Positions 3,596-42,092 of a stretch of 58,538 nt of DNA are shown piece by piece; position 1 is the stretch's first letter, and every line of letters begins with the position of its first letter. The translations under genes were made by a program, and so were the position numbers. This DNA is from an uncultured bacterium. Lineage in GTDB: Bacteria > Verrucomicrobiota > Kiritimatiellia > RFP12 > UBA1067. Under the pieces are notes generated by a model. The model was not told the origin of the DNA. It was given only the letters and a program-made list of their open reading frames with translations, and ran no database searches. The stretch is from the NCBI GenBank assembly GCA_902799715.1, contig CADCBS010000001.1:1-58538 (forward strand), in the 5' to 3' direction.

Positions 3596-3618
3596 GTCCC
3601 GGTCCTCCCCGCGCCCGG

Positions 3619-4134
3619 TCAGGCGTCCTGGCGGCCGCCGTCGGACGAAAGCAGCTCGGCCATCCTCGCCGCCGCCGCCGCCATGCTGCGCGAAAGTTCC
3701 GTCAGCTCGAGCCGCACCGGCGCCACGGAGTTCGCCGCCTGGGTCAGCTCGGCCTCGCGCTGGACCGACGCCTCCAGTTCGGCCTCGAGCTCGACGATCC
3801 TGTTCTCCGCGTCGCGCAGGAGCCGGCGCGTCTTGAAGAGCTGTTTCACCACCTCGCCCGGCTCGACGTTCACGTCGTCGATGTGCATGTCTTCCGGGAT
3901 CGGCACGGAAACGGCCTGGCCGCACCGCGCGCACTGTATCTGCAGGCCCGCGCCGCGGTAGTCTATCACAAGGTTGTGCCCGCAGTACGGGCAGTCGAAC
4001 ACGATGTCCGTGTCGCTTATCTCGCTGCCGTCGTCGGCCTCGACAGGTTCGGAGGGCCGCACTCCGGGGGTTTCGATTTCCTCGGCGAACTGCGGTTCTT
4101 CCGGACCGGGAGCGTTCTCGTTCTCTTCGTTCAT
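3619..4134 (-). CDS. Hypothetical zinc-ribbon plus coiled-coil protein
   Basis: Acidic N-terminus, CPYCGHNL...CARCG zinc-ribbon pair, and a C-terminal heptad-like helix (RIVELEAELEASVQREAELTQ). SD AAGAGGAA lies upstream of ATG 4134. Confidence 0.7.
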   Translation of the reverse strand: MNEENENAPGPEEPQFAEEIETPGVRPSEPVEADDGSEISDTDIVFDCPYCGHNLVIDYRGAGLQIQCARCGQAVSVPIPEDMHIDDVNVEPGEVVKQLFKTRRLLRDAENRIVELEAELEASVQREAELTQAANSVAPVRLELTELSRSMAAAAARMAELLSSDGGRQDA

Positions 4135-4173: not shown

Positions 4174-4202
4174 AGTATACCCGATTCGCGCGGCAGGGGC
4201 AA
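4174..4202 (-). promoter_or_regulatory. Candidate sigma70 promoter of the zinc-ribbon gene
   Basis: Minus strand reads TTGCCC-17 nt-TATACT, about 40 nt upstream of ATG 4134. The same TATACT -10 recurs at other promoters in this window. Confidence 0.4.
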
Positions 4203-4409
4203 GCCCGCCGGCGAGCCGCCAGCGCCTATCCGCAAAACGCGCAGGCTTTCTTCTCCACGCCTTCTTCCGTGGATGGGGCAGCCTGCCCTCATACGCATAC
4301 TGTCGCGCCGCAGGAAAATCTCACGCGGCAGGCGCAATTGCAGCATGGTGCCGGTTTGCGTCGAAGCCGGCGGGGCATGGCCGCGCTTCGCCTTCCCCGA
4401 TCTTTGAAA

Positions 4410-4993
4410 TGAGATTGCGGTGCGTATGAAATCTGATTCGCCCCGCTCGTTGGCAAGGCGGCTTGTCCCAAAGCCACTGCAAACGGCTCGCGACCCCACA
4501 AACCTTGAAGTGAGATTACGGTGCGGATGAAATCCGATTCGCCCCGCTCGTTGGCAGGGCGGCTTGTCCCAAAGCCACTGCAAACGGCCCGCAACCCCCA
4601 CAAACCTTGAAGTGAGATTACGGTGCGTATGAAATCCGATTCGCCCCGCTCGTTGGCAGGCGGCTTGTCCCAAAGCCACTGCGAACGGCCCGCCAACCCC
4701 CAAACCTTGAAGTGAGATTACGGTGCGTATGAAATCAAGGTTGAAGGTTTTGACTTCGGACTTTGGACTTCAGACTTCAGAAATCGACCTCTGACTTTTG
4801 CCTTTCGTTTTACCCAGAAATAAATAAAAACAATCAAAGATAAACAAACTGCAAGCCATTACTGAAATGAGATTACGGTGCGGATGAAATCCTATTCGCC
4901 CCGCTCGTTGGCAGTGCGGCTTGTCCCAAAGCCACTGCAAACAGCCCGCCAACCCCACAAACCTTGAAGTGAGATTACGGTGCGTATGAAATC
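4410..4993 (+). repeat. Repeat array 1: six direct copies of the 24-nt core TGAGATTACGGTGCGTATGAAATC
   Basis: Copies start at 4410, 4511, 4613, 4713, 4868 and 4970 (periods 101, 102, 100, 155, 102). Four ~77-nt near-identical type-A modules and one 131-nt AT-rich module (4737-4867) lie between them. Confidence 0.9.
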
Positions 4994-5474: not shown

Positions 5475-7130
5475 CTACTTCTTTTCCTCTTGCGCCTTTT
5501 CCTGCGCTTTGTCCTGCGGCTCTACCTTAGCCTTATCCTGCGCCTTTTCTTGCGCTGCAGCCTGCGGTTTGTCCTGCGGCTTTTCCTGCGCCACGACCTT
5601 AGCCTTTTCCTGCGCCTTTTCCCTGAGCTTGCTCTTGATCACGTTGTTGCGCAAGCCCCAGCCTGCGGCGCCGAGAGCCTTGTAGAGCGAAATCAGGTTC
5701 ATCGTTATCTGTCCGCGCGATATCACGAGCGCTTCTTCGAGGGACAGCTGCGAACGCTGGGCGTCGAGGACGTTGTTGAAGTCCGCCAGTCCGTTGGAGT
5801 AGAGGTCCTGCGCTATGGAGGTGGCCTCCTTTGCGGCCTTGACGGCCTCTTCGAGCGACTGGTTGCGGTGGTACTGGCGCGTATATGCGGCGTATGCGTT
5901 GCGGGTTTCCGCCACGGCGGTGCGCACCGCGAGCTCGTACCCGTACGCGGCTTCTTTCACCTTGTGCTCGGCGATCTTCACTTTCGCGCGGATGCTGCCG
6001 CCCTGGAAGATCGGCCAGCTCACGGACGGGCCGATGGACGCGAGAAGCGAGCTGCGTTTGAAGAAGTCGGAGAACGACGCCGATTCCAGCCCGAGCGTCC
6101 CGTTGATGAAAAGCCTGGGGTAGTACATGGACTTCGCGACGCCTACGGACGCGACGGCCGACTTGAGGTTCGCCTCCGCCTGTTTTACGTCCGGGCGGTT
6201 GCGAATCCAGTCGAACGGGATTTCCGCAAGTTTCTGCGGCTCCAGCTTCCATTCGCGGTCGGGGACCGGGAGGAGTGTGTCATGGAGCGTGCCGGGCATG
6301 GCGCCGGCCAGGATCTCGAGCCCGTTCACTATAGACTCCTCGTCCGCCAGAAGGGCGGGGATCTGCGCGCGCGTCTGTTCAAGGATGTATTTCGACTGGC
6401 TTACGGCCAGCTTGTCGCCGATGCCGGAGCTGAAGCGCTTGAGCAGCAGATCGTGGGTCTCCTGCTGGAGCTTGAGGTTCGCCCGCGCGACCTTGAGGCG
6501 CTGCTGCACGGTGCGCAGGTTCACGTACTGCGCGCCGATTTCGGCGGCGAGCGACACCCACGTGTTGTCCTCGCTCCACACGGCGGCCTGGACCTGCGCC
6601 TCGGCGGACTCGACGCCGCGGCGGACGCCGCCGAAGATGTCTATTTCCCACGTGGCGTCGAATCCGGCCTGGAAATGGTCGGTATGGAGGTGTCGCCCGG
6701 CGCCGGTGGGCGTGGTCCTGCCGTATTCGGCGATTCCCGCGCCGGCGCCGCCGGAAAGCTGCGGGAAGAGGCCGGAGGCCGCCCCCAGAAGCTGCCAGCG
6801 CGCCTGCGAGAGGCGGTGCTGCGCCATCAGAAGCGAAAGGTTGTTCGTCACCGCGCGGTCGACAAGTCCGGTCAGGACGGGATCGTCGAACGCCTTCCAC
6901 CAGTCGAGCAGGGACTCGCGCGTGATGGTCTTGCGGACGTCGGCGTCGCCTTCGGCGGGCTTGAGTTCGCCGGTTTCGGTGCGGTTTGTCGTCGGCATCC
7001 CGGCGTCGGGCGCGGGCGCGGCGGGATCGGCGGATTCGGGGCGCTCCCAGTCGGGCCCCACCGACAGGCAGCCGGCGGCGGCCGCGGCGAGCGCCGCGGC
7101 GAGAAGGTATGCTTTGTTCTTCGTTTGCAT
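5475..7130 (-). CDS. RND efflux outer-membrane lipoprotein (NodT/OMF family)
   Basis: Lipobox AAAAGC near the N-terminus. Two OEP-type repeats with typical LDWWKAFDDP and LYSNGLADFNNVLDAQR motifs. Unusual K/Q/E-rich C-terminal tail. Confidence 0.9.
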   Translation of the reverse strand: MQTKNKAYLLAAALAAAAAGCLSVGPDWERPESADPAAPAPDAGMPTTNRTETGELKPAEGDADVRKTITRESLLDWWKAFDDPVLTGLVDRAVTNNLSLLMAQHRLSQARWQLLGAASGLFPQLSGGAGAGIAEYGRTTPTGAGRHLHTDHFQAGFDATWEIDIFGGVRRGVESAEAQVQAAVWSEDNTWVSLAAEIGAQYVNLRTVQQRLKVARANLKLQQETHDLLLKRFSSGIGDKLAVSQSKYILEQTRAQIPALLADEESIVNGLEILAGAMPGTLHDTLLPVPDREWKLEPQKLAEIPFDWIRNRPDVKQAEANLKSAVASVGVAKSMYYPRLFINGTLGLESASFSDFFKRSSLLASIGPSVSWPIFQGGSIRAKVKIAEHKVKEAAYGYELAVRTAVAETRNAYAAYTRQYHRNQSLEEAVKAAKEATSIAQDLYSNGLADFNNVLDAQRSQLSLEEALVISRGQITMNLISLYKALGAAGWGLRNNVIKSKLREKAQEKAKVVAQEKPQDKPQAAAQEKAQDKAKVEPQDKAQEKAQEEKK

Positions 7131-7167
7131 CTGCGTTTCCTTTTGTAAGGTGAGTTTCCGGCGTGCG

Positions 7168-10100
7168 TCACCCGGCGCGCTCCTTGAGCCTGCGCCTGCG
7201 GGCCGATGCGGCCGCCGTGTACGCGAACATGCGCTTGATCTTTTCGCGGATCGTCTGGAAGAGCGCGTACAGGCCTGGCACCAGCACGACGCCGAACGCC
7301 ACGGAGAAGAGCATGCCCCAGAACTCCGTAACGCCTATCGCGTTGCGCGACGCGGCGCCCGCGCCCGTGGCGACCACCATGGGCCACGTGCCGAGAAGCG
7401 TGGTGAGCGCGGTCATCAGCACGGCGCGCAGGCGTTCGCCGCCCGCGGCGCCTGCGGCGTCCGCTATCGAATAGCCCTCGTTCTCGCGCTTGTCCTTGGC
7501 GAACTCCACGATGAGGATCGCGTTCTTCGACGCCAGGCCCACGAGCAGCACGAGGCCGAGCTGGGCGTACACGGAAAGCGACAGGCCGTACAGCTTCAGG
7601 CCCACGAGCGCGCCGTAGGTGGCCACGAAGATGGACAGCATCACCGGCAGCGGGATCGTCCACGACTCGTACTGCGCCACGAGGAACAGGTAGCCGAACA
7701 GGATGGCGAGGCCGATCAGCGGCGCGGCGGAGCCGGCGTTGCGCTGCTCCTGGAACGTTATGCCGGACCACTCGAAGCCGTAGCCGGCGGGCAGGTTGTC
7801 GCCGAGGATGCGGCGCACTTCGTCCATCACCATGCCGGAGGCCACGCCCGGCATGGGCATCACCTTCAGGCCGGCTGCCGGGAACTGCTGGTAGCGCGAC
7901 ATCGTGCGCGGGCCGGCTTCGCGCTCGATCGTGGCGAGCGAGCCGACCGGCACCATCGAGCCGGTCTCGGAGCGGACGTACAGGTTCAGTACGTCCTCGG
8001 GCGTGGCGCGTCCCGACCAGTCGGCCTGCACCGTCACACGGTTCACCTGCGTGCCCAGGTTCACGTCGTTCACGTAGCGCGAGCCGAGATAGTTCTGCAG
8101 CGTGGCGTACGCAGTGGCGATCGGCACGCGGAACATCTCCGCCTTGTCGCGGTCCACGTCCAGGCGCAGGTGGGGGGTGTTGGCCGTGTAGCCGGAGTAG
8201 GCCATCATGATCAGCGGCGAGGCGTTGAGCTTGGCCAGCATCTTGTTCTTCACCGTGTCCAGCTCTATCGGGTCCACCTTCTCCTTGGACTGTATGCGCA
8301 CGTCGATCGCGTTGTCGGCGCCGAGGCCGGGGATGGCCGGCGGCACGAACACCTTGAACGACGCTTCGGGGATGCCGTCGAGCATTTTCTGCACTTTGGG
8401 GATGAGCGCCTGGACGTGCTGGTCGGGGCGGGAGCGCTCCTTCCAGTCCTTGAGGTCGGCGATGAGCATGCCCTCGTTCTCGCCGCGGCCGCCGACCAGC
8501 GACATGCCGTTGATGGACAGCACGGAGTTGACCTCGTTCGTGAGCGAGAGGATCGCCTGCACGGCGCGGCGCGTGACGTCCTGCGACCTGGCGGACGTGG
8601 TGCCCTCGGGCAGTTCCACGGACGCGAACAGGCATCGCTGGTCTTCGTCGGGCAGGAAGGACGTCGGCGTGGACTTGAACGCCTGGACGGTCAGCAGCAC
8701 GGCAACGGCCAGCAGCAGCCCGGCGAGGACGATGCGGCGTGCGAGCCCGCGCGCCACGACCACGAACAGGCTCTTGAACTTGTTTATGCCGGTGTTGAAC
8801 CAGGCGAGCGGCCCGTGCCTGTACGGGCGCGCCTCGTGCAGCAGCAGAGAGCACAGCGCGGGGGCGAGCGTGAGCGCGCACAGGGTGGAGAAGCAGACCG
8901 CCGCCGAAAGCGTGACCGAGAACTGCTGGTATATGCGGCCGGTGATGCCCGTCATGAAGCCGACCGGCACGAATATGCCCAGAAGCACCAGCGTGGTGGC
9001 GATGACCGCGCCCGTCACGTCGCTCATGGCCTGGATGGTGGCCTCCTTCGCGTTCAGCCCGCGCGTCTCGATGAGGAACTGCACGCGCTCGACCACCACG
9101 ATGCAGTCGTCCACCACCACGCCGATCGCGAGCACGAGGCCGAACAGCGTGAGGATGTTGATCGAATACCCCAGCGCGGCCATCAGGATGAACGTGGAGC
9201 ACAGCGACACCGGGATCGTTATCAGCGGTATCAGCGTGGCGCGCCAGTCCTGCAGGAACAGGTAGCACACGAGCACCACCAGGCCGAACGTTATGAACAG
9301 CGTTATCTTGATTTCGTCGATGCAGTGGCGCACGTAGTCCGTGGCGTCGTACGGGATGGTGGCCACCATGTCGTCCGGGAACGACTTCTCGAGCTCGGCC
9401 ATCGCCTTGCGCACCGCGTCCATGGCCTTGATGGCGTTGGCGCCGGGCTTCTGCTGGAGCGCTATCGACACGGTGTTGCCGCCGTTGAGCTGGCCGGAGA
9501 ACATGTAGTTCTGCTCGCCGATCTCGATGCGCGCCACGTCCTTGAGCTTCACGAGGCCGCCGTTCGCGTCGCGCCGCACTATGATCTCCTCGAATTCGGC
9601 CGGCGTCATCAGGCGGCCCTTGGACACCAGCGAATACGTGAACGCGCCGTGCTTCTGCGTGGGCGACGCGCCCACCGCGCCGAGCGAGGCCTGGATGTTC
9701 TGCTTCGATATGGCGGAGATGACCTCTTCGGAGTTCATCGACTGCGCCGCCATGCGCTGCGGATCGAGCCACACGCGCACGGCGAGCTTCGGCCCGTACA
9801 CCTGCACGTCGCCCACGCCGTCCACGCGCAGCAGGACCGGCTGGATGTTGTTGTAGATGTAGTTGGATATCTCCAGGCGCGAGTGCGTGCCCTTCGGCGA
9901 GCGGATCGCGTAGAAGCCCAGGAAGTCCGTGGACTGCGCGCGCACGCGCCCGCCCAGCTGCTTCACCTCCTGCGGCAGCTTCGCCTCGGCCTGCGTCAGG
10001 CGGTTCTGCACCTTCACGAGGTCCATGTCGCGGTCGGAGCCGACCTCGAACGACACCGTGAGCGAGTACGTGCCGTCGTCGCCGGAGTCGCTCGTCATGT

Positions 10101-10371
10101 AGATCATGTCGTCCACGCCGTTGACTTCGTCCTCCACCGGCGTCGCGATCGTGTTCATCACTTCGCGGGCGTTCGCGCCCGGATACGTGTACGTCACGCG
10201 GATTTCCGGCGGCGTGAGCTGCGGGTACTGCGCTATCGGCAGCGACAGCATCGCCATCATGCCCGCGATGGACAGCACCACGGCTATGACCATCGCGAAG
10301 CGGGGACGCTCCACGAACGTGCGCGAGAACGTCTTTATCTTGTCTATAGATTCGCGGATCTTGAGTTTCAT
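7168..10371 (-). CDS. RND (HAE1/AcrB-type) efflux permease
   Basis: 1067 aa. N-terminus [39 protein letters not shown]. 12-TM architecture with two large loops. Confidence 0.95.
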
Positions 10372-10410
10372 TTCATCGGCCCGTGCGTGAGTATGGCGGT
10401 TGCCGCGGCG

Positions 10411-11661
10411 TCACTTGTCGGACGGGCGGACGTAGCCGGGATGCGTGTCTTCGTTGGGCGTGGCCTCCGCAAGGCGGACCTTCTTGCCGGGGCCGAGCTT
10501 GCCTACGCCGGAGGTGACGACCCGCTCGCCGGCCTTCACGCCCTCCAGCACCGGCACCCAGCCTTCGTGCATGTCGAGCGTCTTCACCGCGCGCGGCTCG
10601 ACCGTCATGTCGTCCTTCAGCACGTACACCTGCACGCCGCCGCCTATCGCGTCGATTATCGCCGACTGCGGCACGCACGTGTATTCCGGCGGCTTCGAGT
10701 AGTCGGTCAGCAGCGTCACGTAGCTGTTGGGCACGAGCAGGCGCTCCGGGTTGGGGAAGGACAGGCGCATCGAAATCGTCGCCGTCTCGGCGGACATCGC
10801 GTTGTCGTCGAAGTCCCATTTGCCCTGCCCCGCGTAGTCGGAGCCGTCGGGCAGCTTCAGGCGCAGGCGGAATCCGCCGTCGCCGCCGCCGCCGGAGCGG
10901 GCCTTGCGCCACGCGATGTACGAGCGGTCCGTCATCGGGAACGTCACGCGGATGGGGTCGATCTGCACGATGCGCGCGAGCGCGCCCTTCGCCGGCGAAA
11001 CGTAGTCGCCCACGTAGGCGTTCGACTTGCCGATCTGCCCCGAAATCGGCGCGTACACCTTGGCCTTCTTCAGGTCGTAGCGCGCCACAACCAGGTTGGC
11101 TTCGGCCTGCAGCACGGCGGCCTTCGCGGAGTCGGCCTTCGCTTCGGCGTTGTCGCGCTCGGAATCAGGTATCACGCCCGCCTCCGCCTTGCGAGTGCGT
11201 TCGAGATACCTGTCCGCGCGGCGCTGCTCGGCCTTCGCCGCCTCGAGGTCCGCTTCGCGCTGCCTCACCACGGCCTGGTAGCGCTCGTCGTCGAGCTCGT
11301 ACAGCAGCTCGCCGGCCTTCACGGTGGAGCCTTCGGAGAAGTGCAGCTTCTTTATGTAGCCGTCAACCTGCGGCAGGAGGTCCACCTCCTGCATGGCCTC
11401 GGCGTGGGCCACGAACCGCAGCGGCTTGTTGTACGGCCTGTTGGTGGCGCACGTCACCGCCACGGAAATGTCCTGCGCCGGCATCTGCGGCGGCGTCATC
11501 TTCTGCTGCGGCATCAGGCCGCGCCCTATCCATCCGGCCGCCACCCCGGCTCCGGCCGTAAGCAGGGTGCCTATCAGGGCCGCCGCCGCGGCCTTGCCGC
11601 CGCCTTTCTTCTCCTCGCGCGCCTGCGGCGCGCCCTGTGTCGTCTGTTCTTCTCCGCTCAT
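10411..11661 (-). CDS. RND efflux periplasmic adaptor (MFP)
   Basis: Lipoyl/hairpin/beta-barrel pattern (VKAGELLYELDDERYQ..., APISGQIG). Start set to ATG 11661 (MSGEEQ), which overlaps the TetR stop as ATGA. The track ORF starts upstream, inside tetR. Confidence 0.9.
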   Translation of the reverse strand: MSGEEQTTQGAPQAREEKKGGGKAAAAALIGTLLTAGAGVAAGWIGRGLMPQQKMTPPQMPAQDISVAVTCATNRPYNKPLRFVAHAEAMQEVDLLPQVDGYIKKLHFSEGSTVKAGELLYELDDERYQAVVRQREADLEAAKAEQRRADRYLERTRKAEAGVIPDSERDNAEAKADSAKAAVLQAEANLVVARYDLKKAKVYAPISGQIGKSNAYVGDYVSPAKGALARIVQIDPIRVTFPMTDRSYIAWRKARSGGGGDGGFRLRLKLPDGSDYAGQGKWDFDDNAMSAETATISMRLSFPNPERLLVPNSYVTLLTDYSKPPEYTCVPQSAIIDAIGGGVQVYVLKDDMTVEPRAVKTLDMHEGWVPVLEGVKAGERVVTSGVGKLGPGKKVRLAEATPNEDTHPGYVRPSDK

Positions 11662-12326
11662 TTCGCTTTTCCCTTCTTTCTTCCGGAAGCCGTATCCGCA
11701 GACGGCCCGGGAGCCTTCTCCCAGCCGCCGCGCCACATCGCGAAGGCGTCGATCACCGCCTCGCGCACTTCACCGTCCAGAAACCCTCCGATCGCCGCCC
11801 CCACGAGCGCCGACCACGAAAGCACCATGAACCCCGCGGTCTTGGCGATGTCCACCCCGTCGCGCAGCCGCCCCGCGGCCTTCTCCTTCTCCAGCGCGCC
11901 GTGCAGGAGCGCGACCGGCCCGCCCTCGCGCTGCGACTTCACCACGCGCGCGCGGATTTCCGCCATCGACGACCCGCTCCACCTTATCTGCGAATGCAAC
12001 AGCCTGTACATGCTCCGCGACCTGGGGTCGGACACGATCCGCACGGCCTGCTCGGCCATTGTCTCCGCCGCGCCCGCCATGTCGGGCGACTCCGGGCCTT
12101 TCACCATCGCGCGCTCGAAACGCGCGTGCACGATCTTGACCACCTCTATCAGCAGCGACTGCTTGTCCGGGAAGTGCCAGTACACCGCGCCTTTCGTCAT
12201 GTCCATCTTGCGCGCGATGTCCTCGAAGGTCGTCTTCTCGTACCCGCGTTCGGCGAAAAGCGACAGCGCGGAGGCGATTATCCGCCTTCGCGTCTTTTCC
12301 GCGTCCTGTTGCGTCCTTCTTGCCAT
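11658..12326 (-). CDS. TetR/AcrR-family repressor of the efflux operon
   Basis: HTH ASALSLFAERGYEKTTFEDIARKMDMTKGAVYWHFPDK. Start set to ATG 12326 (MARRTQQD); the track start at 12365 is a TTG. Confidence 0.9.
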   Translation of the reverse strand: MARRTQQDAEKTRRRIIASALSLFAERGYEKTTFEDIARKMDMTKGAVYWHFPDKQSLLIEVVKIVHARFERAMVKGPESPDMAGAAETMAEQAVRIVSDPRSRSMYRLLHSQIRWSGSSMAEIRARVVKSQREGGPVALLHGALEKEKAAGRLRDGVDIAKTAGFMVLSWSALVGAAIGGFLDGEVREAVIDAFAMWRGGWEKAPGPSADTASGRKKGKAK

Positions 12327-12379
12327 GCGTGTGTCCGGTCCTATTCCGCCGGCAGAGCCTGCCAAGCGGAAGCGCGCGA

Positions 12380-12409
12380 AGTATACATACCTTTCGGTAG
12401 GTATGTCAA
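12380..12409 (-). promoter_or_regulatory. tetR-efflux promoter with an embedded palindromic operator
   Basis: Minus strand reads TTGACA-18 nt-TATACT. The spacer contains the perfect inverted repeat ACATACCT-N6-AGGTATGT (12385-12406). Confidence 0.55.
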
Positions 12410-12640
12410 GCCCGAATCCGCGCCGCGCTGCGCAGGGGTCCGGCGCGGCAGGGCCGGTGCAAAAAAAACGGGCGGCACACCCGTGCCGTCCGCCGTACTG
12501 CGGTCAACGCCAGTATAAGCCGCAGCAAGTTGTTGCCTTCACTATAGCGAAAACCGTGCCAGCCCGCGGAAAGCGCCTTTTTCTGGCGTTTGCCTGCGGC
12601 AAATGCGACATTTTTGCAGGAAATCGCCAGAAATGTACGA

Positions 12641-12673
12641 CAAAAACGGAGCACGGCGCCGGTTCGGCATGCT
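12641..12673 (-). terminator. Candidate intrinsic terminator of the feo operon
   Basis: Directly after the stop at 12674 the minus strand reads AGCATGCCG-aaccgg-CGCCGTGCT, followed by CCGTTTTTG. Confidence 0.5.
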
Positions 12674-12826
12674 TCAGGCTTTTTTGGATTTGCGGCTTTT
12701 TTCGCATGTGCAATTGCGGCAGCACCCGCCGCATTCGCAGGGCGCACCCTTTTTCAGGTTGCGCCACACTGCAAATGCGGCGAGCCCCACAACCGCCGCA
12801 AGAACCGCGACAGAGCCGACGCTCAC
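12674..12826 (-). CDS. FeoB-associated Cys-rich small membrane protein
   Basis: 50 codons: one TM (SVGSVAVLAAVVGLAAFAVW), then NLKKGAPCECGGCCRNCTCEKSRKSKKA. GTG start overlaps the feoB stop as GTGA. It is the real tail of track ORF 12674..14491. Confidence 0.75.
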   Translation of the reverse strand: MSVGSVAVLAAVVGLAAFAVWRNLKKGAPCECGGCCRNCTCEKSRKSKKA

Positions 12827-15800
12827 AGCGCCGGCTCCTTCCCCGCCTTGGCGGCGGGGCGGAAGACCATCCACAGGCAGAAGGCGTCGAGCGCGAGCGC
12901 CGCCGCCGTCCACAGGCCGAATCCCCCGCCCGCGGCCAGCACGCCTATCCTGTACGCGGACAGCGCCAGCACGTAGCCCGTGAACAGCTGGAAGCCGACG
13001 GCGAACCAGCCCCACGCCTTCGACCCCATTTCGCGGAACGTGACGGCTATCGCCACCATGCACGGCGGGATGAACAGATTGAAGATCATGAACGACAGCG
13101 CCGCGAGTTTCGGGAAATCGCTGAACGACGCGAAGAGCCACTTGATCTGCGCGCCCGTGGCGCCGCCAGGCATGTTGGACGCCACCAGCCCCAGCGTGGC
13201 CGTCGCCTGCTCCTTTGCGATTTCGGCGGAAACCGACGCCGCCGCGCCCTGCCACGATCCGAACCCGAGCGGTTCGAGCATCCAGGCGAGCCATCCGCCC
13301 GCGACGGCCAGCATCGACCGGTCGATGCCCTCTTCGCCGACATGCGCGAACGAGAAGTCGTAGTTCATTATGAACCACAGGAACACGCACGCCGGGAAGA
13401 TTATCAGGCCGGCCTTCATGATGTAGCCTTTCACGCGGATCCACGTGTGCCGCCAGATGCCCGCCGCGGTGGGCATGTGGTACGCGGGAAGCTCCATCAC
13501 GAACGGGGCCGCCTCGCCGGCGAACGCCCTGGACTTCTTGAGCGCTACGCCGCCCATCACGATCACCGCTATGCCGATCACGTCCATCAGCGCGGCCACG
13601 TACCATTGTCCGCGGAAGAACAGCGCCGCGAACATCGCGATTATCACGGTCTTCGCGCCGCAGGGTATGAACGTGGCCAGCATGACCGTCATGCGGTGGT
13701 CGCGCTCGTTTTCGATCGTGCGCGCCGCCATCACCGCCGGCACGCCGCAGCCTTTGCCCACGATCATCGGGATGAACGACTTGCCGGACAGACCGAATTT
13801 GCGGAACAGGCGGTCCATTATGAACGCCACGCGCGCCATGTAGCCGCAGTCCTCGAGGAACGCCAGGAACAGGAACACCACGGATATCACGGGCACGAAA
13901 CCGAGCACCGTCGCGACGCCGCCCCATGCGCCGTCGAGGACCAGCGACTTCACTTTGTCGCCCGTGCCGACGGCGTCCAGCGCTTCGCCGATAAGCGTCT
14001 TCAGGCCGGGGATGAACACGCCGAAGCGCGAGGGGTCTACCTCCGGGACTTCCTTCGACGCCTTGTAGGCGGCGTAGTCGCATTCCCACGACATTTCGTG
14101 GCCGCAGCATCCGCAGTCGCCGGGCATCGGGCCTTCCTGCGCGGCGACGCCGGCGGCGACGGTTTCGTCGAATATCTCGAACCCGCTTTCTTCGAACAGC
14201 GACTTGGGGATGTAGGTCTTGCCTTCCTTCTTCGCCGCTTCGCGGGCTTCGCCGGACGCCTTGCGCCACTCCTTCTCCGCCTCCCTGTTGAACCCGCGCA
14301 GCTTGGTTTCGTACGCGCCGCCGCCGTTTTTCGCGTCGTATGCCTTGATGTAGGCGGCGCGCCACTTGGCGACCTTCTCGCAATGTTCGCAGGCTTCCTT
14401 GGGCTCTCCTTCCTCGCCGGTGCAGTCGCCGCACGAATGGCCGGGGTCGGCGGCTTTGGCCATGAGACACTCCACCGGCGCATGCTCGCAAGGCTCCGTC
14501 TCGACAAGGTGCGTTTCGGGGTCGATCGAGGCGACGCCCGTCACGGGTTCGCCCGTCTCTTCGTCGTCGTCGAGTTTGACTTCCGCCTTGACGCCGGCGG
14601 CCAGCGCCTCGTCGAGCACTGCGAACTCCGCGGCCTCGAACCTGTCGCCGTCCTTCCCGGGCTTGAATTCATTTTCGGCCTTTTCGTTCCAGGCCGCAAG
14701 GGCCGTTTCGTACGCTTTTGCTCCGGCTTCGGTCAGGTTGCCGTCCTTGTCCTTTTCGCCGTATTTTTCGTTGTAGGCCTCCTTGTAGGCGCTTTCCCAC
14801 GCCTCGATGTTCTTTTCGTGCGGGGCGTACGCCTCCTTGGCCTCGTCGTATCCCTTCCCGGCGTAGAATGCGCACGACGCGCAGTCGCAGTTCTTCGCGT
14901 CGCCTTTGCAGGCGCATCCCGGCTCGCCGCACTTGAACGTATGCGTTGTGAACGGCAGGTGCCACCCGTCCTCGCCGAGGAAGCTGTCGTTCGCCCAGTC
15001 GGTCAGGATCGTTCCGGGGCCGTTTTCGGCCACGGCCACCCACCACATGGCGCAGAGCGCCAGCACGAACAGGGGAAGCGCCAGTATGCGGTTCGTCACG
15101 AACTTGTCGATCTTGTCGGAGAGCGTGGTCTTGTTCTTGCGGGCCTGCGTGCGCGTCACCGCCTTCGACATCAGATTCTGGATGAACTCGTAGCGCTGGT
15201 TGGTGATGATGGATTCGGCGTCGTCGTCGAGTTCCTTTTCGCAGTCGCGGATGTGGGCTTCGATGTGCTTCATCTCGCCCACCCCTATTCCGAGGTCTTT
15301 TATCACCTCGCGGTCGCGCTCGAATATCTTTATCGCGAACCAGCGTATCGACCTGGCCGGAACCTTTCCCTGGATCGATTCTTCGATGTGCGCGATGGCG
15401 TGCTCCACGGAACCGGAGAACACGTGCGGCGACTCGCCCTTGCGGGCTTTCTTGGCCAGGCGCGCCGCCAGCTGCGCGGCCTCGGCCCCGCCTTCCTTCT
15501 TCAGCGCGCTGATGCCCGTCACCTCGCAGTTCAGCGCCTTGCCGATTTTCGCGAAATCTATCTTGTCGCCGTTCTTCTTCACCACGTCCATCATGTTCAC
15601 GGCCATCACCATCGGGATGCCCAGCTCCGCGAGCTGCGTGGACAGGTACAGGTTCCGCTCGATGTTCGTGCCGTCGACAATGTTCAGGATCGCGTCGGGG
15701 TTCTCTTCGACCAGGAACTTGCGGGACACCTTCTCTTCGAGCGAATACGGCGAAAGCGAGTATATGCCCGGCAGGTCCTGGATCGTCACGTCCTTGTCGC

Positions 15801-15939
15801 CGGCGAGCAGGCCGTCCTTCTTCTCCACGGTCACGCCGGGCCAGTTGCCGACATACTGGTTCGAGCCCGTAAGCGCGTTGAACAGAGTCGTCTTGCCGGA
15901 ATTGGGGTTGCCGGCCAGCGCTATCTTTATTTTTGCCAT
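12823..15939 (-). CDS. feoB: Ferrous iron transporter FeoB with a ~320-aa Cys-rich insertion after TM1
   Basis: G-domain GNPNSGKTTLFNALTG...DLPGIYSL...NMMD. Gate motifs LEDCGYMARVAFIMDRLFRKFGLSGKSFIPMIVGKGCGVPAVMAARTIE. 1038 aa versus the usual ~700-800. Confidence 0.95.
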   Translation of the reverse strand: MAKIKIALAGNPNSGKTTLFNALTGSNQYVGNWPGVTVEKKDGLLAGDKDVTIQDLPGIYSLSPYSLEEKVSRKFLVEENPDAILNIVDGTNIERNLYLSTQLAELGIPMVMAVNMMDVVKKNGDKIDFAKIGKALNCEVTGISALKKEGGAEAAQLAARLAKKARKGESPHVFSGSVEHAIAHIEESIQGKVPARSIRWFAIKIFERDREVIKDLGIGVGEMKHIEAHIRDCEKELDDDAESIITNQRYEFIQNLMSKAVTRTQARKNKTTLSDKIDKFVTNRILALPLFVLALCAMWWVAVAENGPGTILTDWANDSFLGEDGWHLPFTTHTFKCGEPGCACKGDAKNCDCASCAFYAGKGYDEAKEAYAPHEKNIEAWESAYKEAYNEKYGEKDKDGNLTEAGAKAYETALAAWNEKAENEFKPGKDGDRFEAAEFAVLDEALAAGVKAEVKLDDDEETGEPVTGVASIDPETHLVETEPCEHAPVECLMAKAADPGHSCGDCTGEEGEPKEACEHCEKVAKWRAAYIKAYDAKNGGGAYETKLRGFNREAEKEWRKASGEAREAAKKEGKTYIPKSLFEESGFEIFDETVAAGVAAQEGPMPGDCGCCGHEMSWECDYAAYKASKEVPEVDPSRFGVFIPGLKTLIGEALDAVGTGDKVKSLVLDGAWGGVATVLGFVPVISVVFLFLAFLEDCGYMARVAFIMDRLFRKFGLSGKSFIPMIVGKGCGVPAVMAARTIENERDHRMTVMLATFIPCGAKTVIIAMFAALFFRGQWYVAALMDVIGIAVIVMGGVALKKSRAFAGEAAPFVMELPAYHMPTAAGIWRHTWIRVKGYIMKAGLIIFPACVFLWFIMNYDFSFAHVGEEGIDRSMLAVAGGWLAWMLEPLGFGSWQGAAASVSAEIAKEQATATLGLVASNMPGGATGAQIKWLFASFSDFPKLAALSFMIFNLFIPPCMVAIAVTFREMGSKAWGWFAVGFQLFTGYVLALSAYRIGVLAAGGGFGLWTAAALALDAFCLWMVFRPAAKAGKEPAL

Positions 15940-15959
15940 TTCTCCGTCTCCCGGGCGCG

Positions 15960-16178
15960 TCAGACGATTTCCACCATTGCAGCCTCGCTCTTGCGGATCG
16001 ACAGCTCGTAGCCGCGCACCGTAAGCTCGATGGGATCTCCGAGCGGCGCGATTTTCCGCACCGCCACCTCCACGCCTTTCGTCAGGCCCATGTCCATGAT
16101 CCGGCGCTTCACCGCGCCTTCGCCGTTCAGGCGCGCGACCTTTGCGCGCGCGCCCGGTTTCAGTTGATCGAGTGTCAT
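15960..16178 (-). CDS. feoA: FeoA-family protein (copy 2)
   Basis: MTLDQLKPGARAKVARLNGEGAVKRRIMDMGLTKGVEVAVRKIAPLGDPIELTVRGYELSIRKSEAAMVEIV. ATG checked at 16178. The track ORF has a spurious extension. Confidence 0.9.
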   Translation of the reverse strand: MTLDQLKPGARAKVARLNGEGAVKRRIMDMGLTKGVEVAVRKIAPLGDPIELTVRGYELSIRKSEAAMVEIV

Positions 16179-16501: not shown

Positions 16502-16530
16502 AGTCTAACATTGTTTGTCTTGGTTGTCAA
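16502..16530 (-). promoter_or_regulatory. Candidate sigma70 promoter of the feo operon
   Basis: Minus strand reads TTGACA-17 nt-TAGACT, about 60-70 nt upstream of the feoA start. Confidence 0.5.
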
Positions 16531-16635: not shown

Positions 16636-17193
16636 TGAGATTACGGTTCGTATGAAATCCTGTTCCCCTTGCGCAGTGGCGACCACCCCTTCAAAAACCT
16701 GAATGAGATTACGGTGCGTATGAAATCAAATTGCGAGTGTTTCGACTCTGGACATCCGACATTCGACATCCGGCATCATGGGGAGCGAATTCCGTTTGAT
16801 GGGGAGAGTTTGGGTTTCAACCATCGTCTAACAATGGAATCGCCCGCTTCTTCCCAAAATGAGATTACGGTGCGTATGAAATCCTGTTTCCCTTGCGCAG
16901 TGGCGTCCACCCCTTCAAAAACCTGAATGAGATTTCGGTTCGTATGAATTTGATTGGCCGTGGAGAAATCGGCCGTGCAGAAGTGCAGAACGTGTGGAAA
17001 ACCGGAAGGGCGCATGCCCTCATGCGCCGCAGCCCCTCCACCCAGAAATGAGATTACGGTTCGTATGAATTTGATTGGCCGTGGAGAAATCGGCCGTACA
17101 GAAGTGCAGAACGTGTGGAAAACCGGGAGGGCGCGTGTCCTCGTGCGCCGCAGCCCCTCCACCCAGAAATGAGATTACGGTTCGTATGAAAAT
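16636..17193 (+). repeat. Repeat array 2: six direct copies of the same 24-nt core (TGAGATTACGGTKCGTATGAAATC)
   Basis: Copies start at 16636, 16704, 16860, 16928, 17049 and 17170 (periods 68, 156, 68, 121, 121). Modules: B (44 nt, twice), one 132-nt module (16728-16859), D (97 nt, twice). Confidence 0.9.
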
Positions 17194-17306
17194 GACAAGC
17201 CGCCCTGCCGGTACGCCACGATACGGCAAGAAACAACCGGCGGCGGACGATAAGGGGCGCATCGCAGGAATTTGGTGCGCGCCGCCCTTGCCGTCGCGGC
17301 GGCCGC

Positions 17307-38388: not shown

Positions 38389-38868
38389 TCAGCGGCGGTG
38401 CCGGCCGCGGAACCCGCCGCGGTAGCCGCCGCGGAACGCGGGCGGAGGCGGGCGGTGATAGTGGCGCGGCCCGTAGTATATCGGACGCGGAGCCACCACC
38501 GTGGTGCCGTAGCCGTAGGGATAATAGCCTGTCGAATACGTTTCGACCACCGGCGCGGTCACGACCGGAGTCGTGACGACCGGCGTCGTGACCACAGGCG
38601 TGGACACGACGGGCGTGGACACCACCGGAGTGGATACCACCGGCGTGGACACGACGGGAGTCGTCACTACGGGCGCGGGATTCACTACCACGGTGTCCGG
38701 GCCGTTCACCGCGCGGTCTATCAGGCCCAGCGTGGCTCCGACGGTGTGCAGTATCCCGCCGGCCAGGAAGAGTCCGTCCCTGTGATGGCCGTGGTGGCGG
38801 TGTCCGGCGAACATTGGCAGAGCCATGGCGGCCGTGCAGAACAGAACGATCACTTTCTTTTTGTTCAT
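38389..38868 (-). CDS. Secreted low-complexity protein: His-rich N-terminus, (T/S)TPVV x9, Tyr/Gly/Arg-rich C-terminus
   Basis: Signal peptide MNKKKVIVLFCTAAMALPMFA, then GHRHHGHHRDG, nine pentapeptide repeats, and YYPYGYG...FRGGYRGGFRGRHRR. SD AAGGAGAAGAA lies upstream. Confidence 0.7.
   Translation of the reverse strand: MNKKKVIVLFCTAAMALPMFAGHRHHGHHRDGLFLAGGILHTVGATLGLIDRAVNGPDTVVVNPAPVVTTPVVSTPVVSTPVVSTPVVSTPVVTTPVVTTPVVTAPVVETYSTGYYPYGYGTTVVAPRPIYYGPRHYHRPPPPAFRGGYRGGFRGRHRR
38545..38676 (-). repeat. 15-bp tandem coding repeat (about 9 units) encoding (T/S)TPVV
   Basis: The plus strand shows acgaccggMgtcgtg / accaccggMgtggaY-type units in series. Confidence 0.8.
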
Positions 38869-39074: not shown

Positions 39075-39224
39075 ACGTACTGCCTTGGGGTGGTGTTGCG
39101 TTGCATGGGCTGGTGCCGCACCGCCCCTGGGTGGCGGGTCTCGCGGTTCCGCTCCGGCGGGGCGGGAACGCGATCCGGGCCGGCCGTTCGCAAAAAGGGG
39201 ATAGACAGCAAAAAGGGGATAGAC

Positions 39225-42092
39225 ATGAGAAACTCGAAAAAGGCATACATGATCCTGGGACTGGCGGCCGGGTTCTGCGCACATGCGGACTGGACGCTGG
39301 ACGGATCGCTCTCTCTGGACGCCGACACGGACTGGCGCGGGCGTGGCGTCATGACAGTGCCGGCGGGAGCGACGCTGAACCTGAACGGATACGTCCTTTG
39401 GGTGGATGCAATCGCCGGGGGCGGGACGATAGCCGCCTCATCGGAGACGCAGTACCAGCTCGCCGACCTTACGGCGCCGGACGCGAGCCGCGTTTCAAGC
39501 TCTCCGCTCATAAATGCCAATTACAAGGCCATCAGCGCATTCGACAATTCGATCGAACATCCTTCGTTCGTTTTCGCGCAAGGCGATTTCAAGAACGGGA
39601 ATGCGTGGAACATCGATTACGACTTCGGCGCGGCGACACGGGTGAACTGCTACCGCATGATAGGCATGACGAAAAAAGGCTCCGAATACGGCTACCCGCT
39701 CACGCGCTGCCCGCAGGACTGGAAAATACAAGGTTCCGACGACGGCGAAACGTGGACGACGGTGGACGAACGATCCGGGCAGACGTTCGCGGTGGGCGAA
39801 TACAAAAGCTATCTTTTCAGCAAGCCGGCCCCGGCCTACAAACGCTATCGCATGGCGATATCGTCGGTAGGCGACAACAACGACGGGCGGCTGCAGTTCT
39901 ACGAACTGGAATACGGCGCGTTCGAGAACGGCCTGTACATCGACGAAACGAGCCAGGCGCATTCCGATTTTTCGGGGCTCTCGGTATCGTCCGGCGTCAC
40001 CCTGTTCTACGGCGGGAACACATCTCTCGTGCGCGACATGGACTTCACGGCGCTGCCGAACGCCCCGATCCTGCACGGCGCGATAGACCTTTGCGGACAC
40101 GACCTTTCGGTCGCGGACTTCCCGTCGCCCTACTGCTGCCTGGCCGCCGAAGTGAAGAACACGGGCGCGTTCGACCTGACGACGCCGCAAGGTGCGGTTT
40201 CGTCGACGAATACGTTCATAACCGGTCCGGCCGCGGCGTTCGGCGACTACGCCGAATGGTCCTCGGCCCATCGTCTCTGCGCGGATTTTTCGAAAGGCAT
40301 TCCGGTTTCGGTCGTATACGATTTCACGGACGCCACGGTGATAGACGCATACAGGCTGAAGCTCGGAAGCTATGCGGATTCTGCGCCGTCCCGTGCGCCG
40401 AGGGCGTGGCATTTCGAAGGCTCGAACGACAACAGCGTCTGGACGCTGCTCGACAGGAGGCCGGACGAAACAGGCTGGACGACTTCGGAAGAGCGCCAGT
40501 ACGGATTCGTGAACGACGCGGCATACAGATACTACCGCATTACATTCACCGCGACCGCTAGCGCCCCGATTCTGGAATTCTTCCGGCTGGAATACGGGTG
40601 CCTGTCATCCTCGGGCAGCGTCCGCGTCGTCGTTCCGCAGGGCAGGACGGCGAAGAACGGGACCGTAGCGCTCTCGGGGCTTCTGCGCCTGGTGAAGGAC
40701 GGGCCGGGGACGTTCGTTCCGGCGAAGACGGGCCAGTCGAACGAGGGCGGCGTGGAAATCAAGGCCGGCGTCCTGAAGTGCGGGGCGGACTACAGCACGG
40801 CGCTCGCGAAACTCGGGAGCGCCGTGATCGTGCGCGAAAACGGGACCTTCGACTTCGACGGGAGGTACAACTACATCGACCTCGATTTCATCCTCGACGG
40901 CGGAACCATCGCGAACACGGGCGCCGACATGTCCGGCCACGCGCAGCTGGCGCGCCTGAAGTTGACGAAAGATTCCGTCCTGGCCCCGTCATCGAGCCTG
41001 TTCTTCGGGCTGGACGCGGCGAACGCCGCCTACATAGACCTGGGAGGGAACAAGCTGGACGTCAAGATAGCCCCCGGGAAAGCCCTCTACATGAGAAGCA
41101 CGGAAATCACGGACGGAACACTCGAATTCTCGCAGGTCGGGTGGTTCTTCCCGGGCGGCAACAGCGGGGTCGTAGCCACGAACGGCGTGGAGATACTGTT
41201 CAACTCCGCGATCGACTCGCGGTGGACGGCGGGCTTGAAGACGTACGAAGGAAGCTTCGCGGCCGGAAACATAGCGCTCCTGTACGACAACGCAAGCAAG
41301 GTGAACAACTACGGCACGACGCCGATAGCGGTCTACGGGGCGTTCAAGCCCAAGTACGCCACGTTCCGCGGGTGCGAACTGCAGGACGGCGCGACGCTCG
41401 ACCTTTCCGAATACACGGGAACGTTCCCGGCGGAGTCGACATTCCAGAACGGCGCGACAGGAATCGCGTATGCCGCCGGGGCGGCGGTGAAAGTGAAGAC
41501 GGGCGACAAGAACATGTCGGCGCTGGCGAAGAGCTCGGATCCGTATCTTGTCAAATGGGCCGCGGGCGTGGAACCCGACGCGACGTTCGAGTTCGCGGAA
41601 GGCGAGCGCGCCGCCGCGAACGGCTACACGCTCGCGCCCGACGGAGAAGGCCTGCGCGTAGTCCCGAAGCCGGGATTCCTGATCAGGATCTCGGGCGGCA
41701 GGGACGTCAAGGTGTCCGGCGAATGGATGGCGGCGAACTGCGAAGCCTTCGGCACGGTGGCGACGGACGAGCTTGCCGGATGGTTCGGCGCGGCGGGGGC
41801 GAACGGCCTTCCGCGCTGGCAGAGCTGGATACTGGGGCTGGATCCGGCGAAGGCGGATTCGGTGATTCTGTGCACCGCCGGCGAAAGCGCGCCGGAAGAC
41901 GGCGGCGAGTTCACGGTAGGCACGAATCTGGAGATTCCCGAATATGCGGAGACGACAGTCACGGCGAAACTGGTGCGCGACGGCGGTTTCGTATGCCAGA
42001 CGAAAGAGTTTACGTCGGGCAAGGTGTCCCTGACGGGGACGCTGGGCGGGAAGAGCGTCGCGTCGTTCTCCGTATGCGTGACGCTGCCGTAG
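39225..42092 (+). CDS. Large secreted/surface protein: two discoidin (F5/8 type C)-like domains plus autotransporter-associated beta-strand repeats
   Basis: Signal peptide MRNSKKAYMILGLAAGFCAHA. Two ...YRMAISS...LQFYELEYG / ...YYRITFT...LEFFRLEYG modules. LVKDGPGTFVPAKTGQSNEGGVEIKAGVLK repeat type. Start ATG 39225; the track ORF starts upstream. Confidence 0.85.
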   Translation: MRNSKKAYMILGLAAGFCAHADWTLDGSLSLDADTDWRGRGVMTVPAGATLNLNGYVLWVDAIAGGGTIAASSETQYQLADLTAPDASRVSSSPLINANYKAISAFDNSIEHPSFVFAQGDFKNGNAWNIDYDFGAATRVNCYRMIGMTKKGSEYGYPLTRCPQDWKIQGSDDGETWTTVDERSGQTFAVGEYKSYLFSKPAPAYKRYRMAISSVGDNNDGRLQFYELEYGAFENGLYIDETSQAHSDFSGLSVSSGVTLFYGGNTSLVRDMDFTALPNAPILHGAIDLCGHDLSVADFPSPYCCLAAEVKNTGAFDLTTPQGAVSSTNTFITGPAAAFGDYAEWSSAHRLCADFSKGIPVSVVYDFTDATVIDAYRLKLGSYADSAPSRAPRAWHFEGSNDNSVWTLLDRRPDETGWTTSEERQYGFVNDAAYRYYRITFTATASAPILEFFRLEYGCLSSSGSVRVVVPQGRTAKNGTVALSGLLRLVKDGPGTFVPAKTGQSNEGGVEIKAGVLKCGADYSTALAKLGSAVIVRENGTFDFDGRYNYIDLDFILDGGTIANTGADMSGHAQLARLKLTKDSVLAPSSSLFFGLDAANAAYIDLGGNKLDVKIAPGKALYMRSTEITDGTLEFSQVGWFFPGGNSGVVATNGVEILFNSAIDSRWTAGLKTYEGSFAAGNIALLYDNASKVNNYGTTPIAVYGAFKPKYATFRGCELQDGATLDLSEYTGTFPAESTFQNGATGIAYAAGAAVKVKTGDKNMSALAKSSDPYLVKWAAGVEPDATFEFAEGERAAANGYTLAPDGEGLRVVPKPGFLIRISGGRDVKVSGEWMAANCEAFGTVATDELAGWFGAAGANGLPRWQSWILGLDPAKADSVILCTAGESAPEDGGEFTVGTNLEIPEYAETTVTAKLVRDGGFVCQTKEFTSGKVSLTGTLGGKSVASFSVCVTLP

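Follow-up and report, generated by a model that had tools for sequence, protein, structure and literature searches.

Two direct-repeat arrays in a Kiritimatiellia genome share a dispersed 24-nt core with an orphan gene family

The sequence analyzed here (the window) is a 58,538-nt stretch of DNA from an uncultured Kiritimatiellia bacterium (contig CADCBS010000001.1 of assembly GCA_902799715.1). It contains two arrays, array 1 (4410-4993) and array 2 (16636-17193), in which direct copies of a 24-nt core (TGAGATTACGGTGCGTATGAAATC) alternate with longer non-coding modules. The same core is dispersed in related genomes and is found in frame near the 3' end of a conserved orphan gene, here called gene Y, suggesting that the arrays may belong to a repeat family cognate to that gene.

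Arrangement of the two arrays

Array 1 consists of six plus-strand copies of the core, recovered at the starts given by the original prediction, a first reading of this DNA from its sequence alone, with no more than one mismatch in any copy; zero matches are expected by chance, as judged from shuffled sequence. Its layout, R-A-R-A-R-A-R-U-R-A-R (with R for the core), also stands as first described. The four A modules (77, 78, 76, and 78 nt) are near-identical, with 93.6% to 94.8% identity to A2, and Tandem Repeats Finder detects a period of 101 nt over 4404-4736 (3.3 copies, 93% matches). Module U has no relation to A and is AT-rich, with a GC content of 36% compared to 65% for the window. An inverted repeat brackets the core at two places; the 8 bp claimed for both are present at copy 4 (AACCTTGA/TCAAGGTT), whereas copy 6 has 7 bp. 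The modules had been called structured as well, which folding does not bear out, since their z-scores (-1.8 to +1.3) indicate no more structure than in shuffled sequence, and the structure of module A amounts to a local hairpin. A degenerate, split core in inverted orientation, to the left of array 1 at 4289-4323, had gone unnoticed.

Array 2, the architecture of which was not covered earlier, contains six further plus-strand cores arranged as R-B-R-U'-R-B-R'-C-R'-C-R', with the X-U-X arrangement found in array 1. Module U' is homologous to U (54% identity, an alignment score reached by 1 of 500 shuffles), and GAC motifs with a 7-nt period are common to both. The likeness of B to A is weak and lies mostly at the 3' end, with a score reached by 14 of 500 shuffles. 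Across both arrays the modules range from 44 to 132 nt. Cores carry up to one mismatch per 24 nt in array 1 and 0 to 4 in array 2, while the modules share 54% to 76% identity. An inverted 16-nt fragment of module A (TGGCAGGGCGGCTTGT) directly follows the last core of array 2, which hints at a past rearrangement between the two arrays. The heptads within U and U' form microsatellites (GACTTCN or GACATCC; 4753-4780 and 16745-16772 in the window), and heptads of the same type adjoin cores in a metagenome-assembled genome (MAG) of far lower GC content (L001, 7771-7797; L052, 1069-1095; L071, 1316-1336), where their orientation to the adjacent core is opposite to that in the window.

Table 1 Cores, modules, and adjacent sequence features of the two arrays, in window coordinates
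Feature	Position	Strand	Remarks
σ70-like promoter of Zn-ribbon gene (TTGCCC-17-TATACT)	4202..4174	-	Context, outside the repeat
Degenerate split inverted core (TGAGATT-19 nt-TGCGTATGA)	4289..4323	-	Left of array 1; pattern match, 0 expected in shuffles
Core R1	4410..4433	+	1 mismatch
Module A1	4434-4510	+	[core+A] unit, head-to-tail, unit size 100-102 nt
Core R2	4511-4534	+	Pattern match; 1 mismatch
Module A2	4535-4612	+	Reference copy for A identities
Core R3	4613-4636	+	Pattern match; 0 mismatches
Module A3	4637-4712	+	Last A module before R4
Core R4	4713..4736	+	Within 8-bp inverted repeat; 0 mismatches
Module U	4737..4867	+	131 nt; heptad block GACTTCG-GACTTTG-GACTTCA-GACTTCA
Core R5	4868-4891	+	1 mismatch
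Module A4	4892-4969	+	Fourth A module, between R5 and R6
Core R6	4970-4993	+	7-bp flanking inverted repeat; 0 mismatches
σ70-like promoter of feoA-feoA-feoB (TTGACA-17-TAGACT)	16530..16502	-	Context; array 2 upstream of promoter
Core R7	16636-16659	+	Array 2
Module B1	16660-16703	+	44 nt
Core R8	16704-16727	+	Array 2
Module U'	16728..16859	+	132 nt; heptads GACTCTG-GACATCC-GACATTC-GACATCC
Core R9	16860-16883	+	Array 2
Module B2	16884-16927	+	Array 2
Core variant R10	16928-16951	+	4 mismatches
Module C1	16952-17048	+	Array 2
Core R11	17049-17072	+	Array 2
Module C2	17073-17169	+	Array 2
Core R12	17170-17193	+	Last core of array 2
Inverted 16-nt fragment of module A	17194..17209	-	Sequence match

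Comparison of strains and relatives indicates how the arrays change. In other assemblies of the same species, array 1 occupies the same site with two A units before U instead of three, along with point differences. Array 2 of one strain (L231) reads R-B-R-U'-R-A'-R-B-R'-C-R', with an extra A' unit between U' and B (71% to 76% identity to the A copies of array 1) and a single C. No cores were found upstream of the orthologous Zn-ribbon genes in relatives at 83%, 58%, 57%, and 52% identity. The arrays are thus lineage-specific and change by whole module-plus-core units. Upstream of the orthologous gene in the 58% relative there is a different heptad repeat (CCTATTG and similar; L218, about 3600-3950).

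The core as a dispersed repeat and as part of gene Y

A scan for the exact core in one genome per species returned 78 stretches, 33 of them from one Kiritimatiellia MAG, JAZQGX, in which the exact core occurs at least 35 times, in many cases some hundreds of nucleotides from a contig end. Others belong to Kiritimatiellae of the rumen and gut or to MAGs that bear the label Verrucomicrobia or Lentisphaerae; about 9 chance matches are estimated for the core pattern and a database of this size, which would account for most hits outside this group. The core was also present in at least 120 metagenome stretches, mostly from rumen samples according to record names, and assemblies frequently break at it. 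At 139 of 183 related loci it is a single copy, and its orientation to neighboring genes is mixed, with a weak bias only (by crude gene calling). Close inverted pairs were found in just 3 of the 183 loci, with the copies 43 to 46 nt apart in a manner resembling REPIN doublets (L029, 420-505; L037, 4711-4796; L019, 794-877). The self-contained repeat-spacer system implied by the original prediction does not hold up against this dispersal; scattering of the core in both orientations, which it had named as evidence against its view, is largely what the relatives show. Nor are the modules captured foreign DNA. The core, a 19-nt pattern from module A, and gene Y are all missing from the viral collection, phage records gave no match to either array, and plasmid records gave none to array 1; instead, the modules are fragments of composite non-coding repeats common to other genomes. 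The papers searched include none with the core sequence, and a search on Kiritimatiellia, repeats, and transposases returned none on the repeats of these organisms.

In 99 non-redundant contexts, the conserved sequence reaches AAAA on the upstream side of the core and ATC-TCAT on the downstream side. The consensus, AAA-ATGAGATT-ACGGTGCGTATGA-AATCTCAT, can form an 8-bp stem with a 13-nt loop (fold z-scores of -3.0 and -4.4). No variation is found across contexts in the 5' arm and loop, at positions fixed by the search pattern itself, while the 3' arm decays, and about one third of the copies, including those of the window, have a stem reduced to 4 bp. Tandem repeats are frequent to either side of cores; the notion of a downstream instability hotspot was dropped, as the enrichment is equal on both sides and the control windows are mostly coding. 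A near-perfect σ54-type promoter (TGGCACGGGAATTGCT) lies some 28 nt ahead of the core in a conserved cluster of loci (L092/L126) and is also present in L052. Such promoters occur near the core in 3 of 95 contexts compared to 0.4 expected, too few for a general partner of the core. Two A modules have weaker σ54-like matches on their minus strand, at 4936 and 4680.

Several other identities were considered for the core and rejected. As a σ70 promoter (TTGAAG-N17-TGAAAT), it has a -35-like hexamer only before A units, conservation of its -10-like part does not extend to other genomes, and promoter scans were negative. As a leader mini-open reading frame (ORF; ATG-AGA-TTA-CGG-TGC-GTA-TGA, MRLRCV), its sole variable positions are non-synonymous and the frame differs from that of gene Y. 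There is no gene upstream that would make it the 3' end of an ωRNA or of a TnpB-like element.

The largest family of core contexts encodes gene Y, a conserved ORF of 350 to 460 amino acids. Its close homologs number at least 806, and clustering at 50% identity yields at least 588 representatives; those that are named are all hypothetical proteins of Kiritimatiellae. The core lies in frame near the C-terminus (aAT-GAG-ATT-ACG-GTG-CGT-ATG-AAA-TC, encoding NEITVRMKS), and the peptide NEITxRxK is present in 101 of 120 close homologs. Distant homologs retain the peptide (E/K)ITVR(T/M)K...WW(R/K)RL. Because this peptide is conserved even in these distant members, the core probably began as the 3' coding sequence of gene Y and was then copied elsewhere; the 3' arm of the hairpin may simply reflect this descent. 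Some 44 nt ahead of the start codon there is an inverted core, directly next to the -35 box of an intervening promoter (TTGCCT-N17-TATCAT), so that gene Y is bracketed by inverted cores of 18 to 24 nt, with inverted similarity of up to about 40 nt. This link between the core and gene Y lay beyond the reach of a first reading confined to the window.

The arrangement was checked independently of the core with a distant homolog, P0251 (locus L234), which was retrieved by protein profile only. It contains a perfect 18-nt inverted repeat (GAGATTACGGTGCGGACG), one copy of which lies in the 3' coding end while the other immediately precedes the -35 box of a TTTGTC-N17-TATAAT promoter. Co-variation of the upstream and internal cores within individual gene Y loci was not significant, as 422 of 5000 permutations reached the observed value. 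Many members carry a second core 185 to 350 nt upstream of the C-terminal one, in another frame, encoding (R)DYGAYEI, and the only hypervariable stretch of gene Y directly follows this copy. Low-complexity tandem repeats of variable length are found in gene Y proteins (AAGRN four times in L131, IAPRSGT in L105), the main stretch starting after the first internal core.

Exact cores also lie in frame, encoding (N/D)EITVRMK, in two other genes: an integrase-like ORF of a Lentisphaerae-labelled MAG (L044, L100, L127, L128, and L175) and a carbamoyl-phosphate-synthase-like (carB-like) ORF of a Kiritimatiellae MAG (L031 and L057). These could be due to chance, in-frame insertion, or gene conversion.

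Evidence for mobility comes from JAZQGX, the only MAG in which a multi-copy gene Y unit was seen, with a core at each end and differing flanks. Nine contigs have right ends, in which the gene Y C-terminus is followed by about 330 nt, a core, and unique DNA, and at least five have left ends, with an inverted core, the promoter, and the N-terminus, beyond which the outer flanks differ. The neighbors of gene Y also differ between genomes. In addition, JAZQGX contains a microsatellite-rich, non-coding composite element of 280 nt with a core at one end only. A mosaic locus (L060) combines a module C-like piece, which adjoins a core, a motif from the left flank of array 2, and part of the JAZQGX element, and it ends at a core. 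The U heptad block adjoins cores in JAZQGX, inverted relative to its arrangement in the window. Modules A, B, C, and U are non-coding families with the core as their right-hand end.

Genomic setting

The window is ordinary chromosomal DNA with housekeeping and glycan-metabolism genes, including a resistance-nodulation-division (RND) efflux operon, feoA-feoA-feoB, phospholipid synthesis genes, SecDF, glycosyltransferases, glycoside hydrolases, and one tRNA, which was the only Rfam match at the gathering threshold (the best over the array had E = 9.7). Pfam searches of the 30 main ORFs of the window, a set that excludes small ORFs, revealed no cas, transposase, recombinase, integrase, reverse transcriptase, rep, or par gene, in agreement with the original prediction for the types it had named. 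Both arrays are upstream of σ70-like promoters of minus-strand genes. That of the Zn-ribbon gene is kept in the 83% relative, which has no array, consistent with the earlier view that this gene has its own promoter and that array 1 is not its leader. Scans for σ70-like sites, a search that would pass over the sites read by other sigma factors, found none in any core, and no terminator lies within either array.

A 3294-aa ORF on the plus strand (6127-16011) was rejected as a gene, since its codon-position GC content does not fit and it mirrors, as a GC-rich shadow, the efflux and feoB genes of the minus strand. Three repeats of other kinds are present. A 12-nt (or 36-nt) tandem repeat (TGCGCCTTTTCC) of about 11 copies at 5491-5622, in the 3' end of the minus-strand outer-membrane efflux protein gene, is likely to code for a C-terminal tail of repetitive sequence. 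A tandem repeat with a period of 15/30/45 nt (ACCACCGGCGTGGAC) lies at 38545-38675 within a small minus-strand ORF, and a perfect 18-nt duplication (GCAAAAAGGGGATAGACA) at 39190-39225 is just upstream of the gene for a 1000-aa F5/8-type-C protein.

Origin of the arrays and rival explanations

The reading that we favor, with a probability of roughly 0.5, is that the arrays are local pile-ups in a repeat family cognate to gene Y, comparable to repetitive extragenic palindromes (REPs) with their REP-associated tyrosine transposases (RAYTs), or to insertion sequences (IS) with miniature inverted-repeat transposable elements (MITEs). By analogy with these systems, the core seems to be the recognition sequence of the gene Y protein, and within the same estimate, its extended form of about 29 nt, including the GAAA lead-in, would be the invariant recognition part of a repeat family restricted to the Kiritimatiellia of gut and rumen. 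Under this scheme the core would arise as the 3' coding end of gene Y, and with the inverted copy upstream of the promoter it would bracket the gene like an IS or a RAYT gene. The Y protein would bind the core and promote, or once have promoted, the copying of core-ended units, preferably beside existing cores. Arrays 1 and 2 would then be head-to-tail clusters of non-autonomous module-plus-core units, to which slippage or unequal recombination between the 24-nt direct cores would add or remove whole units. Binding, Y-dependent copying, and insertion next to cores are what we infer; the differences in unit number between strains are observed.

The closest comparison is with REP/REPIN repeats and their single-copy RAYT transposase (Nunvar 2010, PMC2817692; Bertels and Rainey 2011, PMC3116915; Bertels 2017, PMC5581495). 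Like these repeats, the core is a short conserved extragenic sequence of a few to dozens of copies per genome, its family persists across the whole lineage, its consensus can form a hairpin, and the cognate gene is flanked by inverted copies and, in one checked case, resides at a single stable place. Unlike RAYTs, gene Y has no HUH/Y1 (IS200/IS605-type) transposase domain or any known domain, and unlike REPs, the core equals the gene's own 3' coding sequence and its hairpin is incomplete in many copies. All 12 copies in the window are direct and head-to-tail with long modules, in contrast to the inverted doublets of REPINs and the alternation of bacterial interspersed mosaic elements (BIMEs). 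An IS-like organization is suggested by the inverted repeats that bracket gene Y, the right one overlapping the 3' end of the ORF and the left one abutting the promoter, and by the differing flanks of the multi-copy unit in JAZQGX; the non-coding units that share a core end, and at which assemblies break, resemble MITEs or solo-end derivatives. However, gene Y lacks a recognizable transposase fold, and, unlike MITEs, the window units and the 280-nt element have a core at just one of their ends, and the window units accumulate as direct repeats. Since gene Y is neither HUH nor DDE, the units are one-ended and direct, and the hairpin is optional, the family behaves like REP/REPIN-RAYT or IS with MITE derivatives and is a member of neither, consistent with the statement in the original prediction that the arrays fit no definition of CRISPR, REP/BIME, MITE, or iteron cleanly.

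Rickettsia palindromic elements, which are 100 to 150 bp long, are likewise both intergenic and in frame within genes, as the core is in the gene Y linker and the integrase-like and carB-like ORFs; they have no known cognate gene and are not known to form arrays like those of the window. Iteron and centromere arrays (F sopC, R1 parC) share the regularly spaced direct repeats of a (here putative) protein-binding site and a related inverted copy at the promoter of the cognate gene. The arrays of the window differ from these in their chromosomal housekeeping context, the lack of an adjacent cognate gene, spacers of variable length, and the lack of Rep or Par proteins.

Several observations weigh against a mobile family driven by gene Y. 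The unit boundaries in JAZQGX are ragged (0 to 45 nt past the core), no target-site duplication was found, and broken contigs leave the ends unpaired. One gene Y that was checked, P0067, is at a single place with the same neighbors in 6 of 6 places shown, from six samples. The window units are direct repeats and not inverted-end MITEs or REPIN doublets, and gene Y is not encoded in the window, the 58,538 nt in view being only part of the host genome. The reading frame of gene Y runs about 40 to 60 nt beyond the internal core, so the core is not a clean element terminus. Gene Y proteins have no match in Pfam, NCBIfam, PHROGs, PADLOC, or the Protein Data Bank (PDB) and no recognizable transposase, recombinase, or DNA-binding domain, and in Pfam and NCBIfam this applies to close and distant members alike. 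Structure models are all-helical and of low confidence, with a predicted local distance difference test (pLDDT) score of 60 when based on the alignment and 47 for the domain only, and they had no match by Foldseek or by a PDB profile search. Finally, single cores are intact at orthologous intergenic sites with flanks that are 70% to 85% identical, which hints at a host function, although these sites were retrieved by exact core match, which leaves decayed orthologs invisible.

These intact single cores fit a serious if unlikely alternative, in which the core is an operator or architectural site for Y or another DNA-binding protein and the arrays are kept for regulation or chromosome organization, in the manner of auxiliary operators, clusters of upstream activating sequences, sopC/parC-type centromeres, or iterons. 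Cores are much better conserved than modules, the inverted core keeps a fixed spot by the -35 box of the gene Y promoter in divergent homologs, which is a classic place for autoregulation, and the arrays have the same relative orientation to the promoters downstream of them as is found at gene Y. Such sites would leave unexplained why an operator is identical to the gene's own 3' coding sequence and why gene Y units are multi-copy with differing flanks in JAZQGX. Core position relative to other genes is not fixed and orientation is mixed, array 1 is missing in close relatives that keep the same promoter, and the apparent conservation of single-core sites is biased by their retrieval. A system acting at the RNA level appears less probable still. 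Here the arrays would be transcribed, with the core as a hairpin for protein binding or processing, or else as an antisense partner or decoy for the gene Y mRNA in which it also occurs, and with the modules as small RNAs. The consensus stem-loop and its z-scores agree with this, as does the locus where the core, 28 nt downstream of the σ54-type promoter, would be in a 5' leader, and at locus L034 a terminator-like hairpin can be read from the sequence about 190 nt downstream of the core. In the window copies, however, the stem is down to 4 bp, G-U pairs are not in excess of mismatches in the freely decaying 3' arm, the modules fold no better than shuffles, and no Rfam family matches. Unlike a tandem promoter or small-RNA cluster, the arrays have neither a promoter-like site per unit nor internal terminators, and the orientation of the U heptad block to the core beside it is reversed from one genome to another.

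The exact gain and loss of whole units at core boundaries is what cassettes of a site-specific recombination system (integron-, pdif-, or shufflon-like) would also produce, with the core as the crossover site of a tyrosine or serine recombinase, but slippage between direct repeats explains it equally well. Like shufflon sites, cores are embedded in coding DNA, in two reading frames, and the integrase-like gene of the L044 family contains the core in a frame assigned from the sequence. The element GGTGCGTATGA is alike at 9 of 11 positions to what we take to be the XerC arm of Escherichia coli dif. This candidate identity was rejected, as only one arm is alike and no second, XerD-like arm is conserved. 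Recombinases are absent from the main window ORFs and are not consistently found beside cores; circles of 68 to 156 nt are too small for conventional recombinase synapsis, and unlike integron cassettes the modules are non-coding and 44 to 132 nt long. We therefore regard recombination cassettes as quite improbable. A CRISPR-like or other guide-RNA array storing captured sequences is effectively refuted. Its repeat/non-repeat alternation is suggestive, and the repeat length (24 nt, six copies per array) falls within the range of about 23 to 55 nt for CRISPR direct repeats, the only test that this reading passes. In place of unique spacers of equal length, array 1 has four copies of A (four of its five "spacers") and one U, and array 2 has two B, one U', and two C. 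The 58-kb window has no cas genes among its main ORFs, phage, plasmid, and viral matches are lacking, and elsewhere the repeat is mostly solitary and also found inside a protein-coding gene.

Beyond the favored link to gene Y, a bolder and rather doubtful extension is that gene Y represents a new class of transposase or recombinase without a DDE, HUH, tyrosine-recombinase, or serine-recombinase signature, which would recognize the core at its own 3' end and spawn one-ended, non-autonomous repeats that insert beside cores into direct arrays. It would constitute an independent partnership of the REPIN-RAYT type in the Planctomycetes-Verrucomicrobia-Chlamydiae (PVC) superphylum.

Should the link between the core and gene Y fail, the arrays are unusually ordered repeat clusters of little consequence. 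If it is true, a defined 24-nt site is paired with an orphan family comprising, at 50% identity, at least 588 clusters, a tractable combination that could reveal a new DNA-recognition or DNA-mobilization activity in an uncultured lineage that is abundant in the gut and rumen. It would explain why assemblies of Kiritimatiellia genomes break at this repeat, and arrays of variable unit number would serve as strain markers. It would also provide a second independent case, beside REPIN-RAYT, of a repeat population that persists together with a host-resident gene.

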